From contig CAMAVS010000001.1 of assembly GCA_945861665.1 (NCBI GenBank), positions 146,403-210,402 on the forward strand: a DNA stretch of 64,000 nucleotides, written 5' to 3'. This DNA is from Chitinophaga pinensis. Lineage in GTDB: Bacteria > Bacteroidota > Bacteroidia > UBA4408. Positions 9,048 through 14,877 of this stretch are shown here, piece after piece. The notes under the pieces are model-generated. The model worked only from the letters and a program-made list of their open reading frames with translations. It ran no database searches and was not told the DNA's origin. How positions within the stretch are numbered: the first letter of the stretch is position 1; every line of letters begins with the position of its first letter. The translations under genes and the position numbers were made by a program.

Positions 9048-11477
9048 TTATTTTATATTTATCGGCACAATCATTTTTAAACTAATATTTCTACCCATAT
9101 TATAAACTCCGTTTCTACTTGTAGCATAATTTTCGGGAGCATATTTTAGCCTGCTTAAATGACTTTGATAGGCAACATCGGCAATATTATTTGCATTAAT
9201 GAAAAAAGAAAAAAGCATTTTTCCCTTTCGAGTCACATCACCTCCTAAGCCTGCACTCACAAGCGTATAGGCTGATGTTGCCGTTTCTGTTCCAAAAGCA
9301 GAAAAGAAATTATTTTGTGCCATATAATTCTCTACTTGTACTTTGACAAAAACATTCCTCAACGATTTGCCCATTTTTTTCGCATCAGCCTTTAATTCAG
9401 AAGTAATTTTTGTTGGCGGTGTAAAAGGTAAATACCTAGTTGAATCAGAAGCATTTTTTTGTGTTGCTTGTACATAGCTGATAGCATTTTCAAAATGCAA
9501 CCAATCAAGTGGATGTGGATGTAAATCAATACGCAATTCGCCTCCGTTTAATAATGCATTCCCTTGTTTAAACTCAAATGTAGATATAGGATTAGCTACA
9601 TCAACAATTGAATCTGTTCCTGCTTTACTGCTCAATTTAGAGAGATAAATAAAATTATTTATGATGTTACTAAAAACATCTAATTCAATCGACAAATGGG
9701 TTATATCAATTCCAAATGCAAGGTCTGTTTGCAAACTATTTTCGGGTTTAAGATTACTGTTTCCTATTTCATATCGCCCTACTCCTTCGTGTTCACCATT
9801 GGCTCCAAGCTCACCAATATTGGGCATTCTAAACCCTCGTGACAAATTGAATTTAGAATATACCTTATCACTAAACTGATAGGTAGCGCCTAAACTTCCC
9901 GAATAACCGTTAAATACTTTGGCAAAGGCAGTAAATTGCTGTATTGCTCCCGATAACGATTTATCTGTTGGGGCTCCTAAAGAATCTAAAAACAGCTCTT
10001 CACCTCTCTCTTGTCGTTGATCAAATCGAAACCCTCCGCTAACATCCAATTTTTTGATCGACTTTTTTATCGTAGCAAAAGCACCTATATCGAATAAATT
10101 ATAGGCAGGAACTAAAAATTCTGTTCCTACATTTTGAGATTGTTGTTGCATTCCGTTTATCCCGACAAAAGTTTTAAATCCACTTTTTTCAGGTAATACA
10201 TACCTAACATCGTAATTCATTGTATTGAGCAAAAAGTACAATCCGTATTGATTTGGATTAAACACATCGCCAAATTCCTTACGGTGATTTTGCTGAAAAC
10301 CTGCTATTACTTTTAGTTGCCCTCTGCCAATAATAAAGCTGCTATTAGAAACAAACTTTTTATGATTGATTGATTGACGAGGTGTCCCTAATGAATATGA
10401 AGTAAAGTCACGATCGGCAGCCATAACTTCACTCATTGAAGTATCATTTACTGCAATTGGTTTTATGAATTTACCTGTTGTACTATCTCTATCGCCCTCA
10501 ACAATGGCAAGATTCATACTGTAAGAACTAAAGTGCAAATGGGAGTAGCCCCAACTTTTATTTAAACCTACTATAGCCTTGTAATTGGTTTCATTATAAC
10601 CCGAACCATAAACATAACCATCGTATTTATTACTATAAGCGTGTGCCTGTTTGTTACTAAAACGTGCATCCCAAATAAAGCCTTTTAAGTTGCCGCTAAT
10701 GTTAAAAGAATTTCCTACCAAACCATTATTCGTTTGGTAATTAGAAATGATATTCGCTGCTATTTTTCCTTCAGGCAAGGATGGAGCAGATATCATATTA
10801 ATAACTCCGGCCATTGCATCCGAACCGAAAGCAAGGCTGGCCGGCCCCTTCAACACTTCCACCTTACTTACCGAATACTCATCTATCTCGATGCCGTGTT
10901 CATCGCCCCATTGCTGACCTTCCTGACGAATACCATCGTTCACTACTAACACACGGTTGTAACCCAAACCTCTTATTACAGGTTTTGAAATACCCGAACC
11001 TGTTGTTATTTGAGAAATACCGGGTTGTTTTGCAATGGCATCAATAATGTTCATTGAAGTATTTTGCTGCAACTCTACAGCAGAAATAGTAGTTATGGGA
11101 GTGGCAATTCTTTTTCTTTCACTGGCTTGTGATAATCCGGTAACAACCACTTCGTTCATTTCCTTTACCGATTCATCCAATATAAAATCCCTTACAATAA
11201 TCGTATCAAGATTCAATAAGACTGTATACTCTGAATACCCAATATACTTTAATTGAACAATATACTTCCCCTTCGGTAAATTCTGCATTTTATACAAGCC
11301 GTTGATGTCGGTGGATGCACCAATTTTTAAATCTGGAAAATAAACACTAACGCCAATAAGTGCTTCACCCGTTTGTTTATCGTTCACCTTGCCGCTGAGA
11401 TTAACCTGAGCGAAGGAAGCGGATGTACCTATGTATGCAATACACAAACATACAATGAAAAATAGTTTATATTTCAT
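9048..11477 (-). CDS. TonB-dependent receptor with N-terminal CarboxypepD_reg-like domain
   Basis: Signal peptide; GKVNDKQTGEALIGVSV; plug with KPVIRG and RQEGQQWGDEHGIEID, VEVLKGPASL; barrel ending in MGRN. Confidence 0.93.
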   Translation of the reverse strand: MKYKLFFIVCLCIAYIGTSASFAQVNLSGKVNDKQTGEALIGVSVYFPDLKIGASTDINGLYKMQNLPKGKYIVQLKYIGYSEYTVLLNLDTIIVRDFILDESVKEMNEVVVTGLSQASERKRIATPITTISAVELQQNTSMNIIDAIAKQPGISQITTGSGISKPVIRGLGYNRVLVVNDGIRQEGQQWGDEHGIEIDEYSVSKVEVLKGPASLAFGSDAMAGVINMISAPSLPEGKIAANIISNYQTNNGLVGNSFNISGNLKGFIWDARFSNKQAHAYSNKYDGYVYGSGYNETNYKAIVGLNKSWGYSHLHFSSYSMNLAIVEGDRDSTTGKFIKPIAVNDTSMSEVMAADRDFTSYSLGTPRQSINHKKFVSNSSFIIGRGQLKVIAGFQQNHRKEFGDVFNPNQYGLYFLLNTMNYDVRYVLPEKSGFKTFVGINGMQQQSQNVGTEFLVPAYNLFDIGAFATIKKSIKKLDVSGGFRFDQRQERGEELFLDSLGAPTDKSLSGAIQQFTAFAKVFNGYSGSLGATYQFSDKVYSKFNLSRGFRMPNIGELGANGEHEGVGRYEIGNSNLKPENSLQTDLAFGIDITHLSIELDVFSNIINNFIYLSKLSSKAGTDSIVDVANPISTFEFKQGNALLNGGELRIDLHPHPLDWLHFENAISYVQATQKNASDSTRYLPFTPPTKITSELKADAKKMGKSLRNVFVKVQVENYMAQNNFFSAFGTETATSAYTLVSAGLGGDVTRKGKMLFSFFINANNIADVAYQSHLSRLKYAPENYATSRNGVYNMGRNISLKMIVPINIK

Positions 11478-11546
11478 AAAATTATCTTAAGGTTTATAAA
11501 TGCCAAAGCTTGTTGAATTTCCAACAAACAAAAGCGTAACAATAAA

Positions 11547-11870
11547 TTAAGATAAGGTAGGCGGTCCTCTTAAGGAAAATGAATAAGCACAAGTTGAAGA
11601 TGTTGCTTGCGTTGGAATTTCAACGGAATAAACAAAATAAAAAATTTCTGCAACAAAGGAGTAATGTTGCCTAAAAGGGCTATCGGAAATATTTATTGTA
11701 AAATCACAGATAGAACAGTCGTGTTCTTCTGCATGAAAATGCTTTTCTGTTGTAGTGGTACAATGCGAATCATCCTTGTGCGAATAATCGTGAAACCCTC
11801 TTTCTACTAATGGAAACAGGAAAATTACAAGTAAAAAAAATGCTACAATACTTTTAAAAATATTTGTCAT
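11547..11870 (-). CDS. His/CxxC-rich membrane-anchored leader protein with C-terminal RGPP (DUF2946/CruR-like architecture)
   Basis: Hydrophobic N-terminal helix; HDYSHKDDSHCTTTTEKHFHAEEHDCSIC; ends SLRGPPTLS*; 69 bp before the receptor ATG. Confidence 0.75.
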   Translation of the reverse strand: MTNIFKSIVAFFLLVIFLFPLVERGFHDYSHKDDSHCTTTTEKHFHAEEHDCSICDFTINISDSPFRQHYSFVAEIFYFVYSVEIPTQATSSTCAYSFSLRGPPTLS

Positions 11871-11877
11871 TACATTA

Positions 11878-13194
11878 CTAATGAGATGTAATTTTGTTAT
11901 TGGTAGGTACTCTTAAAAGTAATAAAAAACCAATAATAAAGAAAGCCGTTAAAGCTAATACTGAATTCCTCATACCTCCATTAAATTGACTAATTAAACC
12001 AAATGAAACAGTTCCTAAAATCATTCCCGTTTTTTCCATCACATCGAAAAAACTAAAATAACTGGCATTATCTTCAGTAACAGGTAATAATTTTGAATAA
12101 GTAGAACGTGATAAAGCCTGAACACCACCCATTACCAAACCTACCGATGCAGCTATAATATAAAAGTGAATTGGATAATGTGCTACAGAATAAGTAAAAA
12201 CACAAATACATATCCAAATAAATATAGCAATCATCAATGCCCTTATATTTCCTATTTTACGAGAAATAAAAGAGAATAAAAAAGAACCTGCTATTCCCAC
12301 AAATTGAATTAAAAGGATGCTTATAATAAGTGAGTTTGTTTTTATTTTTTCGGCTTCAGGACCTAGTCCCCATTCAATTTCTTTACGTGCAAAAATAACA
12401 GCCATCACCATAATCGTTTGCACACCCATATTATAAAAAAAGTAGGACGCTAAAAAACGTCTTAACTCCAAACGAGTGAGGATATCGGCAAACACATTTT
12501 TAATTTCTTTAAAACCATGACTAATTATTCCTTTTTTATCATCTTTTCTTACTCTTGTTTCGGGCGAAGGAATTACCATAAATGGATATTGAGCAAATCC
12601 CATCCACCAAATACCAACACCAAAGAAAGCAAATTTAGCAGGCATTTTAAATACTATAATTCCTACCAAACATATTATAAGCAATAAGGAACTTCCTAAA
12701 TATCCCATAGCAAAACCTCTGGCACTAACTTTATCTTGATCTGCCGTATCAGCAATTTCGGGAAGGTAAGAGTTGTAGTATACCAAACTTCCCCAAAAAC
12801 CTATAGTGGCACTTATGAAAGGAATAAAACTTAATTCTAAATGAAGTCTGTCAAAAAAGCACAAACACATACAAGAGATTGCACCCAAATAGCAGAAAAA
12901 CTGCAGGAATCTCTTTTTATTACCATAATAATCTGCTATACCGGATAAAATGGGAACAGACAATACCACTATCAATAAAGCAAAAGCATATACATAGGAA
13001 TAAACATCTTGGTTGTGAAAATTAAATCCTAAAAAATTAACAACATCTCCAATATCCTTGCCTGTTTCATCGTGACTGGTTTTATACTCATAAAAATTTG
13101 GAAAAATAGCTGAAGTAATCACCAATGGAAAAACAGAATTTGCCCAATCGTAAAACGTCCAAGCCCTTATTACCTTTTTATCGTTTTTTATCAC
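11878..13194 (-). CDS. MFS transporter (UMF1/Atg22-like)
   Basis: RAWTFYDWANS N-terminus, about 12 hydrophobic helices, GGVQALSRS motif. Confidence 0.9.
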   Translation of the reverse strand: MIKNDKKVIRAWTFYDWANSVFPLVITSAIFPNFYEYKTSHDETGKDIGDVVNFLGFNFHNQDVYSYVYAFALLIVVLSVPILSGIADYYGNKKRFLQFFCYLGAISCMCLCFFDRLHLELSFIPFISATIGFWGSLVYYNSYLPEIADTADQDKVSARGFAMGYLGSSLLLIICLVGIIVFKMPAKFAFFGVGIWWMGFAQYPFMVIPSPETRVRKDDKKGIISHGFKEIKNVFADILTRLELRRFLASYFFYNMGVQTIMVMAVIFARKEIEWGLGPEAEKIKTNSLIISILLIQFVGIAGSFLFSFISRKIGNIRALMIAIFIWICICVFTYSVAHYPIHFYIIAASVGLVMGGVQALSRSTYSKLLPVTEDNASYFSFFDVMEKTGMILGTVSFGLISQFNGGMRNSVLALTAFFIIGFLLLLRVPTNNKITSH

Positions 13195-13262: not shown

Positions 13263-14282
13263 TTAGAAATTATACTCATTCAACTGCTTCCAAAGCAAAT
13301 CTTTCAGCTCGGTAAGTCCTTTTTGAGTATGCGATGAAAAGAAGAGTACAGGAATTTTATTTTTACCTTTTAATTTTCTGTTGAGCTCTGATAAAAGTGC
13401 TTTCTCCAGTTCAGCATCCAATAAATCAGATTTTGAAATCGCCATTATTCTTTTTTTATCAAGCAATTCGGGATTATACAATTTCAATTCGTTCAGCAAT
13501 ATTTTATATTCGGTAAATATATCCTTGGTGTCGGAAGGAATTAAAAACAACAACATTGAGTTACGTTCAATGTGTCGCAAAAAACGTATACCCAAACCTT
13601 TTCCTTCGTGTGCACCTTCAATGATACCCGGAATATCGGCCATTACAAATGATTTATAATCGTGGTACTGAACAATACCTAAATTGGGAACCAAAGTTGT
13701 AAAAGCATAATTTGCAATTTCGGGCTTGGCAGCAGAAACAACCGACAACAAGGTCGACTTTCCCGCATTTGGAAAACCAACCAAACCAACATCAGCCAAT
13801 ATTTTTAATTCCAATATCATCCACTCTTCCTTTCCATCTTCTCCCGGTTGTGCAAAACGAGGCGTTTGCATGGTAGGTGATTTAAAATTATCGTTACCCA
13901 AACCACCCCTTCCTCCTGCCACCAATATTCTTTGTTCGCCCTCTTCTTTTATTTCAAAAAGTATTTCACCTGTCTCAGCATTTCTTGCAATAGTACCCAA
14001 GGGAACTTCCAATATTTCATCTGTTCCTTCGGCACCCGACTTTAAAGAGCTTCCTCCGTGTCCGCCCGGTTCGGCAATAATGTGTTTTCTGTATTTTAAG
14101 TGAATCAAGGTCCACAGTTGCTTATTGCCTCTGAGTATAATGTGTCCACCTCTCCCTCCGTTCCCACCATCGGGGCCACCTTTAGAAGTTAGTTTACTAC
14201 GGTGTAAGTGCGCAGAGCCTCCACCACCCTTTCCCGAGCGACAACATATCTTCACATAATCAACAAAATTGGAATCTGCCAT
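13263..14282 (-). CDS. obgE: GTPase ObgE/CgtA
   Basis: NFVDYVKI, Gly-rich Obg fold, [22 protein letters not shown]. Start set at MADSNF (14282) because the longer ORF overlaps adk. Confidence 0.97.
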
Positions 14283-14304
14283 AAAAACTTGAACTGTTAT
14301 TGTA

Positions 14305-14877
14305 TTAAATACTGTCAATTGTTTTACAAAGTGCGTTAAAAATAACATCAATTTCTCCGATACCATTTACTCCGCAATACTTATTTTGCTTCCCATAAAA
14401 ATCTTTTACGGGAGCTGTTTCGTTATTATATACATCAATTCGTTTTTGAATAACCGAAGGGGCTTGATCATCTGCTCTACCTGAATCTTTGCCTCTAAGC
14501 AATAATCGTTTTTTTAATTCACCTTCTTCTACTTCAAGCGCAAGCATTTTGCTGATGCTAGTATTTTTACTTTTTAACAAATTGTCCAAGGCCTCAGCTT
14601 GTGCTTGGGTACGAGGAAATCCGTCAAAAATAAATCCCTTTGCTGACGAATGCTTGTTCACTTCGCTTTCCAGCATACGTATGGTAACTTCATCAGGTAC
14701 TAATTGTCCTTTTTCCATGTAACTTTTAGCAAGCTGCCCGAGTTCGGTTTCGCCTTTTATGTTTGCACGAAAAATGTCGCCAGTTGATAAGTGTACTAGG
14801 TTATAATGCGCAATTAATTTTTCACTTTGAGTTCCCTTGCCTGCTCCAGGAGGTCCAAATAAAATGATGTTTAACAT
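14305..14877 (-). CDS. adk: Adenylate kinase (short-LID type)
   Basis: [23 protein letters not shown]. Confidence 0.97.

Follow-up and report, generated by a model that had tools for sequence, protein, structure and literature searches.

We analysed a stretch of 64,000 nucleotides (nt) from Chitinophaga pinensis (contig CAMAVS010000001.1 of assembly GCA_945861665.1, positions 146,403 to 210,402 of the forward strand), referred to here as the window, and focused on two adjacent genes: a small open reading frame (ORF), called the leader, and directly behind it the gene of a TonB-dependent receptor (TBDR). The features of the locus are collected in Table 1. An earlier reading of the sequence alone had proposed that the small ORF encodes a metal-sensing peptide on which ribosomes arrest, thereby controlling the receptor. 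The anatomy from which this sequence-only reading set out (107 residues, N-terminal helix, 6 His and 3 Cys ending in CSIC, 45-residue spacer, RGPP) is exact at every position it had assigned, the receptor ATG at 11477 follows the leader stop at exactly the claimed distance of 69 nt, and the QWGDEH motif that had been picked out in the receptor is found at residues 189–194.

Table 1. Features of the leader–receptor locus, in window coordinates
Feature	Position	Strand	Remarks
Leader ORF (upstream ORF, uORF)	11547..11870	minus	107 aa, protein MTNIFKSIVAFFLLVIFLFPLVERGFHDYSHKDDSHCTTTTEKHFHAEEHDCSICDFTINISDSPFRQHYSFVAEIFYFVYSVEIPTQATSSTCAYSFSLRGPPTLS; predicted metal-sensing arrest peptide
N-terminal hydrophobic helix, codons 7–22	11805..11852	minus	predicted signal-anchor or export signal
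His/Cys cluster, codons 27–55	11706..11792	minus	presumed metal-binding sensor
45-residue spacer, codons 56–100	11571..11705	minus	length kept, sequence not
RGPP arrest motif, codons 101–104	11559..11570	minus	predicted stall: Pro103 in P site, Pro104 in A site
P1 5′ arm UUAUCUUAA (Leu106, Ser107, stop)	11547..11555	minus	within footprint of a ribosome stalled at RGPP
Inner 9-bp hairpin	11508..11529	minus	enclosed by P1; not a canonical terminator
P1 3′ arm UUAAGAUAA	11482..11490	minus	−13 to −5 of receptor AUG, masks initiation region (predicted)
TonB-dependent receptor (TBDR)	9048..11477	minus	809 aa; CarboxypepD_reg-like domain, plug, barrel (Pfam)
EGQQWGDEHG, receptor residues 186–195	10893..10922	minus	residues 186–194 invariant; E193-H194 aligned with ZnuD zinc ligands
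Receptor His563	9789..9791	minus	invariant; between FRAP-like and NPNL-like boxes
Atg22-like MFS gene	11878..13194	minus	context only, outside conserved module, absent from other loci

Within the leader, the hydrophobic residues come after Lys6, and the cluster behind them is made up of H27, H31, H36, C37, H44, H46, H50, C52 and C55, the last two being the ends of the CSIC motif (residues 52–55) that closes it. The C-terminus reads RGPP, then T-L-S, then the stop codon. When the family alignment described below was modelled with AlphaFold2 (AF2), the protein formed one helix over residues 2–29 and coil for the remainder, spacer included, with a mean predicted local distance difference test score (pLDDT) of 80. 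Among the 300 six-frame ORFs of at least 40 aa in the window, the RGPP of the leader is the sole occurrence of R[AG]PP. Because the motif is unique in the window, and because motif, position and cysteine spacing are all conserved in a large family, the features of the leader exceed what chance would provide.

That family became visible only by exhaustive searching: a word-indexed search with the leader ORF alone returned 2 proteins, and an exhaustive phmmer search returned 348 representative clusters at E ≤ 1e-3, nearly all of ∼105 aa. Motifs were counted in 150 distant homologues (≤50% identity) out of these 348 clusters. The sequence-only reading had expected the terminal motif to be conserved, and it is: [RK][AG]PP is kept in 144 of the 150 (76 RGPP, 66 RAPP and 2 KAPP) and lies 1–5 residues before the stop in 140, usually 2 or 3. 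CxxC and RxPP are 43–46 residues apart in 142 homologues, with 44 by far the commonest value (111), followed by 45 (21), 43 (6) and 46 (4). In an alignment of 83 leaders (A1, from which the start codon was omitted, such that its numbers run one below those of the full ORF), the invariant residues are H27, C37, H44, C52, C55, P103 and P104 in full-ORF numbering, the cluster residues among them appearing as H26, C36, H43, C51 and C54 in the alignment itself. P20, H31, H36, H50 and R101 are conserved at ≥90%, and the hydrophobic block, of FLFP type, is conserved as well. The spacer of about 45 residues has no conserved columns in A1, nor in a second alignment (A2) of 40 diverse leaders taken from syntenic loci. 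With its length alone conserved, a linker between a ligand-type cluster and a C-terminal stalling motif is more in keeping with sensing on the nascent chain than with a folded protein.

The conservation that had likewise been expected of the CxxC was borne out in part. Both cysteines are invariant in the 83 homologues of A1 and stand at the near-constant distance given above, but across the wider set of Bacteroidota leaders only the first is universal: in A2 the invariant residues are reduced to H27, C52, P103 and P104. In leaders of Chitinophaga (L024, L029, L033, L035, L038, L049) and Hymenobacter (L042, L045, L047, L050, L053, L057), HxHC replaces CxxC and is followed by (D/E)-(F/V); leaders of these two genera also carry HHDT or HxHxH motifs in their N-terminal part. 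Judged from these residues, the predicted sensor chemistry is variable between clades despite an orthologous receptor. The other end of the peptide varies too, with RGSP or NKGPP in place of R[AG]PP and the CxxC at its usual distance in L008 (2514-2946), L009 (1699-2047), L055, L058, L061 and L070; these endings may be natural variants of the arrest core that differ in stall strength. Outside the phylum, the NCBIfam model LIC10965_fam, which describes a Leptospira small protein over 104 positions, weakly matches the helix and His/Cys region of 12 of the 83 members (best E = 0.004) and, also weakly, the window ORF (E = 0.03), and a spirochaete counterpart of these leaders may exist. One apparent relative was rejected as spurious: P0079, of 1019 aa, is a tandem-repeat protein that matched the last 24 residues of the leader nine times through its repeated '...SYKMQGPPTMQ' unit, the likeness being confined to the 'S..GPPT' tail.

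We then asked which genes accompany the leader. A total of 592 relatives of the receptor were confirmed in contigs of GTDB genomes, and the best 80 of the 592 loci (45–61% identity) were fetched. The sequence-only reading had suggested a survey for small RxPP-terminated ORFs upstream of this receptor family, and the survey came out strongly positive: at 66 of the 77 loci with upstream DNA, an ORF on the same strand ends in [RK][AGS]PP plus 0–12 residues and lies no more than 600 nt from the receptor. The loci with a leader include Chitinophaga, Hymenobacter, Adhaeribacter, Saprospiraceae, Lewinellaceae, Chryseobacterium, Flavobacteriales, Dysgonomonas, Paludibacter, Prevotella and Bacteroides, and RGSP-variant leaders stand at two further receptor loci (L008 and L009). 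The gap between leader and receptor ATG ranges from 16 to 351 nt, with a median near 95. The association also holds in reverse: three diverse homologues found through the leader (P0202, P0115 and P0303) each lie 30–85 nt upstream of a TonB receptor; their sources are Seonamhaeicola, a Chitinophagales metagenome-assembled genome and a metagenome contig. At every locus examined the gene downstream of the leader is a TonB receptor and never sec or yidC. At the orthologous loci, no conserved neighbour beyond genus level offered a clue to the substrate, and no PepSY or copper genes lie beside the leader–receptor loci. Leader and receptor thus make up a two-gene module, all other neighbours being conserved within genera at most.

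This arrangement closely resembles that of CruR (Bp2923, DUF2946/PF11162) from Bordetella pertussis, the leader of cruR-bfrG(crtA)-bp2921 (PMC9426467; PMC12914433). CruR consists of an export signal, a CXXC motif, 45 residues whose number is conserved within 1–2, and RAPP plus 3 residues, and it is located upstream of a TonB transporter; its CXXC and the spacing behind it are required for copper control, its export signal is dispensable for regulation, and it acts through Rho (PMC9426467). There is no complementation of CruR in trans. The window leader shares with CruR the export signal (predicted for the leader), the CxxC, the ∼45 unconserved residues and the R[AG]PP three residues before the stop, as well as the position directly upstream of a TonB-dependent transporter, the non-coupling gap and the poorly structured protein. 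The two differ in several respects. The window leader ends in RGPP rather than RAPP, although both are about equally frequent in its own family, and it carries an extra conserved His-rich block and one additional Cys but lacks a Met-rich stretch. Its receptor is ZnuD/heme-receptor-like with nine conserved His, not of CrtA or OprC type, and there is no PepSY_TM partner gene; the gap is 69 nt and AU-rich compared to 162 nt and GC-rich in CruR, and the predicted output is unmasking of the receptor start region as opposed to Rho.

A further difference is that the Pfam model PF11162 does not match the window ORF, and whether the two families are related had to be judged from more sensitive comparisons. 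Pfam and NCBIfam searches of the window ORF gave nothing meaningful, and the family consensus had no match in Pfam. DUF2946 is nonetheless the most recurrent Pfam match among the relatives, found in 15 of the 83 members at sub-threshold scores (best E = 0.0021; gathering threshold of PF11162, 23.7 bits). Among the syntenic leaders, the one from Prevotella (L043) reaches 21.9 bits over profile positions 8–117 of 117, followed by those from Saprospiraceae (L006, 19.1 bits) and Bacteroides (L026, 15.3 bits), and these alignments are nearly full-length, reaching the last profile position. The hidden Markov model (HMM) built from A1 in turn finds L026 at 1e-6 and L006 at 9e-5 (Z = 1e6), while the profile of the 40 syntenic leaders, run against 5.8 billion sequences, finds P0303 at E = 1.6e-8; this protein, which also precedes a TonB receptor, lies above the Pfam threshold with 24.9 bits to DUF2946. 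Profiles were also compared with hhalign against 12 proteins annotated as DUF2946, taken from published source data (PMC12992588). For A2, the local probability is 89% (E = 2e-6), centred on the CxxC region, and the global alignment, with a probability of 76% (E = 2.6e-6), matches transmembrane helix, CxxC and RAPP in the same order; for A1, the values are 62% local and 47% global. Local alignment covered short fragments only, such that the global mode was needed. In 11 of the annotated DUF2946 proteins the CxxC–RAPP spacing is 44–47. Because the near-threshold matches recur, P0303 exceeds the threshold and the profiles align collinearly, we read the leader family as a probable remote branch of the DUF2946 superfamily that is mostly missed by Pfam. 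The expectation that an HMM search would link the leader to DUF2946 thus held for its relatives, mostly below threshold, and failed for the window ORF itself.

The arrest motif itself has been surveyed in bulk. Fujiwara et al. (2025) found that RAPP and RGPP cause robust, EF-P-resistant arrest in varied contexts, that the two are functionally equivalent, and that they are depleted from proteomes yet enriched near the C termini of small exported proteins encoded upstream of TonB-dependent receptor genes, with counts of 4450 RGPP versus 125 AGPP and 5450 RAPP versus 722 AAPP (PMC12992588). Toeprinting confirmed arrest on CruR and mapped its two Pro codons to the P and A sites (PMC12992588), the position in which RAPP and RGPP generally arrest ribosomes (PMC12992588, PMC10951233). 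Such leaders were reported 'universally in Gram-negative bacteria', and those of Cu-annotated genes were missing in Bacteroidota (PMC12992588). The window locus fits this class exactly (small ORF, predicted export signal, C-terminal RGPP, TonB-dependent receptor downstream), but the catalogue is a survey of motifs and annotations, in which neither a Bacteroidota family nor a sensor motif, a spacing rule, a receptor family or an RNA structure is defined. Its source data include 'hypothetical protein' entries of the same architecture, for example WP_083645465.1 (Gramella flava) and WP_132536099.1. They also list at least two more small His-rich RxPP-terminated ORFs, WP_236995823.1 (Gramella flava) and WP_045033083.1, the latter upstream of a gene for a resistance-nodulation-division (RND) efflux adaptor; on these entries, Bacteroidota, or at least Gramella, has more than one such leader. 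In every database row examined, the leaders are unnamed or named 'hypothetical protein'. The published list of more than 2000 CruR sequences includes no Bacteroidota, and the literature searched contains no paper that joins DUF2946 with Bacteroidetes.

Two further systems help to place the locus. CutF (DUF2946) of Rhodobacter capsulatus, the leader of cutFOG, senses periplasmic copper during its export and stalls, and the stalled ribosome melts a stem that shields the ribosome-binding site of the next gene (bioRxiv 10.1101/2025.02.05.636593). A membrane-targeted nascent chain that senses a metal and stalls at a C-terminal proline motif is what we predict for the window leader as well, and melting of a stem over the downstream start by the stalled ribosome is the output predicted here. 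CutF differs in that it controls a detoxifying multicopper oxidase, with copper increasing the stalling, so for an uptake receptor the opposite response is expected; its stalling, at a PPP motif, also interacts with EF-P. SecM, ApdA and ApdP are arrest peptides that serve as monitoring substrates (PMC10987492; PMC10951233). They resemble the leader in ending a small protein, exported or predicted to be so, with a RAPP-class core, and the control predicted for the receptor, by mRNA remodelling at a stalled ribosome, has its counterpart in them, but they monitor Sec or YidC, precede sec or yidC genes and lack a metal-binding cluster. The claim of the sequence-only reading that the locus is an 'undescribed system' was therefore too strong: it is of the CruR/DUF2946 kind, and RGPP/RAPP leaders have been catalogued in bulk (PMC12992588). 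The locus is not a new kind of system but a divergent Bacteroidota branch of the CruR/CutF class, which was already counted in the 2025 survey; the Bacteroidota family has not been described before. What sets it apart demonstrably is the His-rich sensor below the Pfam threshold and the ZnuD/heme-type receptor without a PepSY partner, to which a translational output, in a phylum without Shine-Dalgarno sites, is probably to be added.

The receptor gives some indication of what may be sensed. By sequence, its nearest solved structure is ZnuD of Neisseria meningitidis (4RDR, E = 1e-18); the heme receptors ShuA and PhuR come next. None of the curated NCBIfam models comes near its cut-off: the ZnuD model NF038289 reaches 87.2 bits against a cut-off of 950, in the plug region only, and the heme receptor models TIGR01785 and TIGR01786 reach 143–144 bits against cut-offs of 317–324. 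The receptor contains, in order, the boxes GFR(A/M)PN, NGxHEG with an invariant His, and NxxLKPE. In the alignment with the ZnuD chain, E193-H194 falls on D113-H114 and H563 on H513; the zinc ligands of ZnuD are Asp99, His100, Glu340 and His499 (PMC6288298), and given the constant offset of 14, E193-H194 and H563 correspond to Asp99-His100 and His499. Glu340 is outside the aligned stretches. With zinc ligands thus matched by an acidic-His pair at the plug apex and by a His lying between FRAP and NPNL boxes, the receptor is like ZnuD; it differs from ZnuD in carrying an N-terminal CarboxypepD_reg-like domain. In 60 orthologues, residues 186–194 are invariant and G195 is kept in 59; H194, H372, H563 and H661 are invariant, H313, H594, H653, H655 and H773 are 85–98% conserved, and there is no conserved Cys or Met. 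This His-rich pattern differs from OprC, whose copper site is built of Cys and Met, and from CrtA, which has two conserved His only compared to nine here. In heme receptors of the ShuA type, the same two His positions ligate heme, which is why zinc is a lead and not a conclusion. Taken together, the alignments support a putative receptor whose substrate is a metal cation, heme or a metallophore.

We next considered how a stall on the leader could reach the receptor. The TTGTTG/CAACAA hairpin of the sequence-only reading is present (11510-11515 and 11522-11527) and makes up the central part of a 9-bp hairpin predicted within the gap. It is enclosed by a second predicted pairing, P1, in which the tail of the leader pairs with the receptor start region. 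This pairing is found in both the minimum free energy and the centroid structures of the segment running from the leader 3′ end to the receptor start (z = −2.1), and when the segment that a stalled ribosome would cover is forced to be single-stranded, the mean pairing of the start region drops from 0.61 to 0.33. In a sister species, whose leader is 77% and whose DNA in this region is 88% identical, the fold has the same P1 and a longer inner hairpin (z = −3.9; 0 of 200 shuffles fold as well). Beyond this pair of species, the probability of pairing between stall segment and start region averages 0.205 over 54 loci compared to 0.084 for a shuffled segment (Wilcoxon p = 1e-4) and exceeds 0.2 at 25 of them. 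Ranked against other 24-nt windows from the same leader, the leader tail is in the top 10% of duplex partners of the start region at 22 of 60 loci (binomial p = 3e-8). The gap itself holds little else: the 69 nt contain no terminator-like site and no sigma-70-like promoter, no known riboswitch or Rfam family, and no copy of the Bacteroidota −7 motif (TAnnTTTG), the nearest upstream copy being at 12143 within the gene of the major facilitator superfamily (MFS) that precedes the leader. An independent promoter in the gap, which would have undermined the proposal, is therefore not indicated by any consensus.

The leader does not stand alone on its transcript. In this organism, a freshwater Bacteroidota not in culture, the gene order is hpt-adk-obg-MFS(Atg22-like)-leader-receptor, and the MFS stop codon lies 7 nt before the leader ATG (window 11871-11880); in the sister species the MFS stop overlaps the leader start codon (L087 2999-3003), and in L091 the leader is the first gene. 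In lake metatranscriptomes, the leader is covered by contigs in 4 runs. Contigs at 11606-11969 and 11756-11897 span the junction between MFS gene and leader, and the two genes are apparently co-transcribed. The leader–receptor pair seems to be appended to the obg-MFS transcript instead of heading an operon of its own. One contig extends beyond the leader stop to 11512, inside the gap hairpin, and the 2430-nt receptor gene is represented by 2 short contigs only across 8 runs. These contigs fit a lower level of receptor than of leader mRNA, by attenuation or by decay of untranslated RNA. Further upstream on the same strand, the obg-like GTPase ORF (13263-14366) overlaps, in the program-made list, some 60 nt at the 3′ end of the adenylate kinase ORF (14305-14877); translation of obg probably begins at an internal ATG, the protein being 339 aa in the sister species and 367 aa here.

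These observations can be assembled into a mechanism. As the leader is translated, its N-terminal helix would direct the nascent chain to the membrane, and the ribosome would stall at RGPP, Pro103 occupying the P site and Pro104 the A site, a geometry borrowed from the CruR toeprint (PMC12992588). During such a stall, 48–76 residues would separate the His/Cys cluster from the peptidyl-transferase centre. The cluster would thus have just emerged from the exit tunnel, and by binding metal or folding there it could pull on the nascent chain and alter the duration of the stall, the folding force releasing it. For a ribosome that has Pro103 in its P site, a toeprint near +16 would put the leading edge on the stop codon and the whole P1 5′ arm inside the ribosome. 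The stalled ribosome would then cover the last three codons of the leader and its stop, melting P1 and unmasking the initiation region of the receptor. Bacteroidota generally lack Shine-Dalgarno sites, and for this reason the masked element here would be the AU-rich start region. Once the stall is released and translation terminates, P1 would re-form and the receptor would be off. The stall may in addition shield the transcript from Rho, as it does in CruR. By analogy with CruR, which also serves an uptake system, metal sufficiency would release the stall and repress the receptor, the likeliest ligand being a divalent metal, foremost Zn, with Ni, Co and Cu(II) as other candidates. From the anatomy and its precedents we infer the stalling, the metal binding, the direction of control and the compartment of sensing. 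Overall, the leader is probably an RxPP-dependent regulatory leader that senses a metal. That P1 unmasking is its main output, as the predicted structures suggest, is plausible at somewhat less than an even chance, and the assignment of zinc as the sensed metal is offered more tentatively still.

The closest competitor keeps the same arrest-peptide sensor but gives it the transcriptional output of CruR: the stall would block Rho, release would lead to termination before the receptor, and the P1 pairing would be secondary or incidental. This has the precedent of the CruR mechanism itself (PMC9426467), and it is also in line with the apparent drop of RNA behind the leader (4 runs with leader contigs, 2 short receptor contigs across 8 runs) and with the contig that ends in the gap hairpin at 11512. 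It would moreover serve the ∼60% of loci without predicted start-region pairing, which need another output. The contig data are thin, however, and since untranslated mRNA also decays faster, the drop in RNA does not separate termination by Rho from unmasking. The gap has nothing terminator-like in it, and a candidate Rho site read from the mild excess of C over G in the 3′ half of the leader (skew +0.28) was rejected, as this skew is inside the normal range of the window (standard deviation 0.24). We regard a Rho output as possible but on the whole doubtful as the main explanation; it can coexist with unmasking of the start region. A different possibility is that the leader encodes a stable membrane-anchored protein that faces the periplasm and binds metal, as a metallochaperone or receptor partner, in which RGPP is a structural or interaction motif and the receptor is not controlled. 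Conservation in the family is highest in the His/Cys cluster and N-terminal helix, the family model reaches a mean pLDDT of 80, and CutF was itself at first interpreted as a copper chaperone (PMC9426467). Yet a region of 45 residues conserved in length only suits a tunnel-spanning linker and not a folded domain, and past residue 29 no secondary structure is modelled. Ordinary proteins are under selection to avoid RAPP and RGPP, both of which arrest the ribosome despite EF-P (PMC12992588), the motif lies 1–5 residues from the stop in 140 of 150 homologues, and the leader tail is complementary to the receptor start region, all of which makes a protein without regulatory function improbable. Lastly, the leader could monitor protein export through Sec or YidC in the manner of SecM, ApdA and ApdP, with release reporting the capacity for membrane insertion and no metal involved. 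An export-type helix combined with a C-terminal RAPP-class motif is indeed the anatomy of a monitoring substrate (PMC10987492, PMC12992588), but at every locus examined the downstream gene is a TonB receptor and never sec or yidC, such a model leaves no role for an invariant His/Cys cluster kept at constant distance from the stall, and regulation by CruR did not need the export signal. We consider this explanation very improbable.

A number of points weigh against the nascent-chain metal sensor with start-region unmasking that we favour. At the level of the family, the window ORF has no match to PF11162 (DUF2946) at E ≤ 1, the global profile–profile probabilities are moderate (47% for A1 and 76% for A2), and the second Cys of the CxxC is replaced in the Chitinophaga and Hymenobacter leaders. 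The literature has no experiment showing stalling, metal binding or regulation for any Bacteroidota member, and the substrate of the receptor could be heme or a metallophore. At the level of the RNA, pairing between leader tail and start region is predicted in only ∼40% of loci, and the pairing statistics rest on thermodynamic prediction, on receptor starts that we called ourselves and on loci that are phylogenetically related. There are no compensatory changes in P1, and covariation is unavailable because the sole close relative retains both arms almost intact. The metatranscriptome contigs are of low depth and can show presence, not absence, and the leader is not the first gene of its transcript in this organism. 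With these points considered, the fullest form of the proposal, in which the locus is the founding example of a Bacteroidota-wide, His-rich and non-copper branch of arrest peptides, most plausibly sensing zinc through the nascent chain immediately beyond ribosome or translocon, that acts by stall-dependent unmasking of a start lacking a Shine-Dalgarno sequence and controls a ZnuD-like receptor, is one that we consider unlikely in its entirety. The leader itself is real and strongly conserved, and the interpretation given by the sequence-only reading is supported, each computational check that it had suggested having turned out in its favour.

Bacteroidota depend strongly on TonB transporters, and the module is widespread among them, occurring in Chitinophagales, Cytophagales, Flavobacteriales, Bacteroidales (Prevotella and Bacteroides among these) and Saprospiraceae. 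To our knowledge, no metal-responsive leader peptide has been characterised in Bacteroidota. If the reading given here is true, nascent-chain metal sensing reaches past Proteobacteria and probably past copper, and a simple rule for annotation follows: a His/Cys cluster, 44–46 residues, R[AG]PP and 2–3 final residues. It would also show how a ribosome stall can be coupled to downstream initiation without Shine-Dalgarno sites. In its fullest form, the proposal would make this the first metal-sensing leader peptide for a metal other than copper, and Bacteroidota would gain their first described arrest-peptide regulator. For the organism itself, the receptor ends a run of co-oriented housekeeping genes that apparently form one transcript, and a post-transcriptional switch may therefore be the only control by metal that this receptor has.

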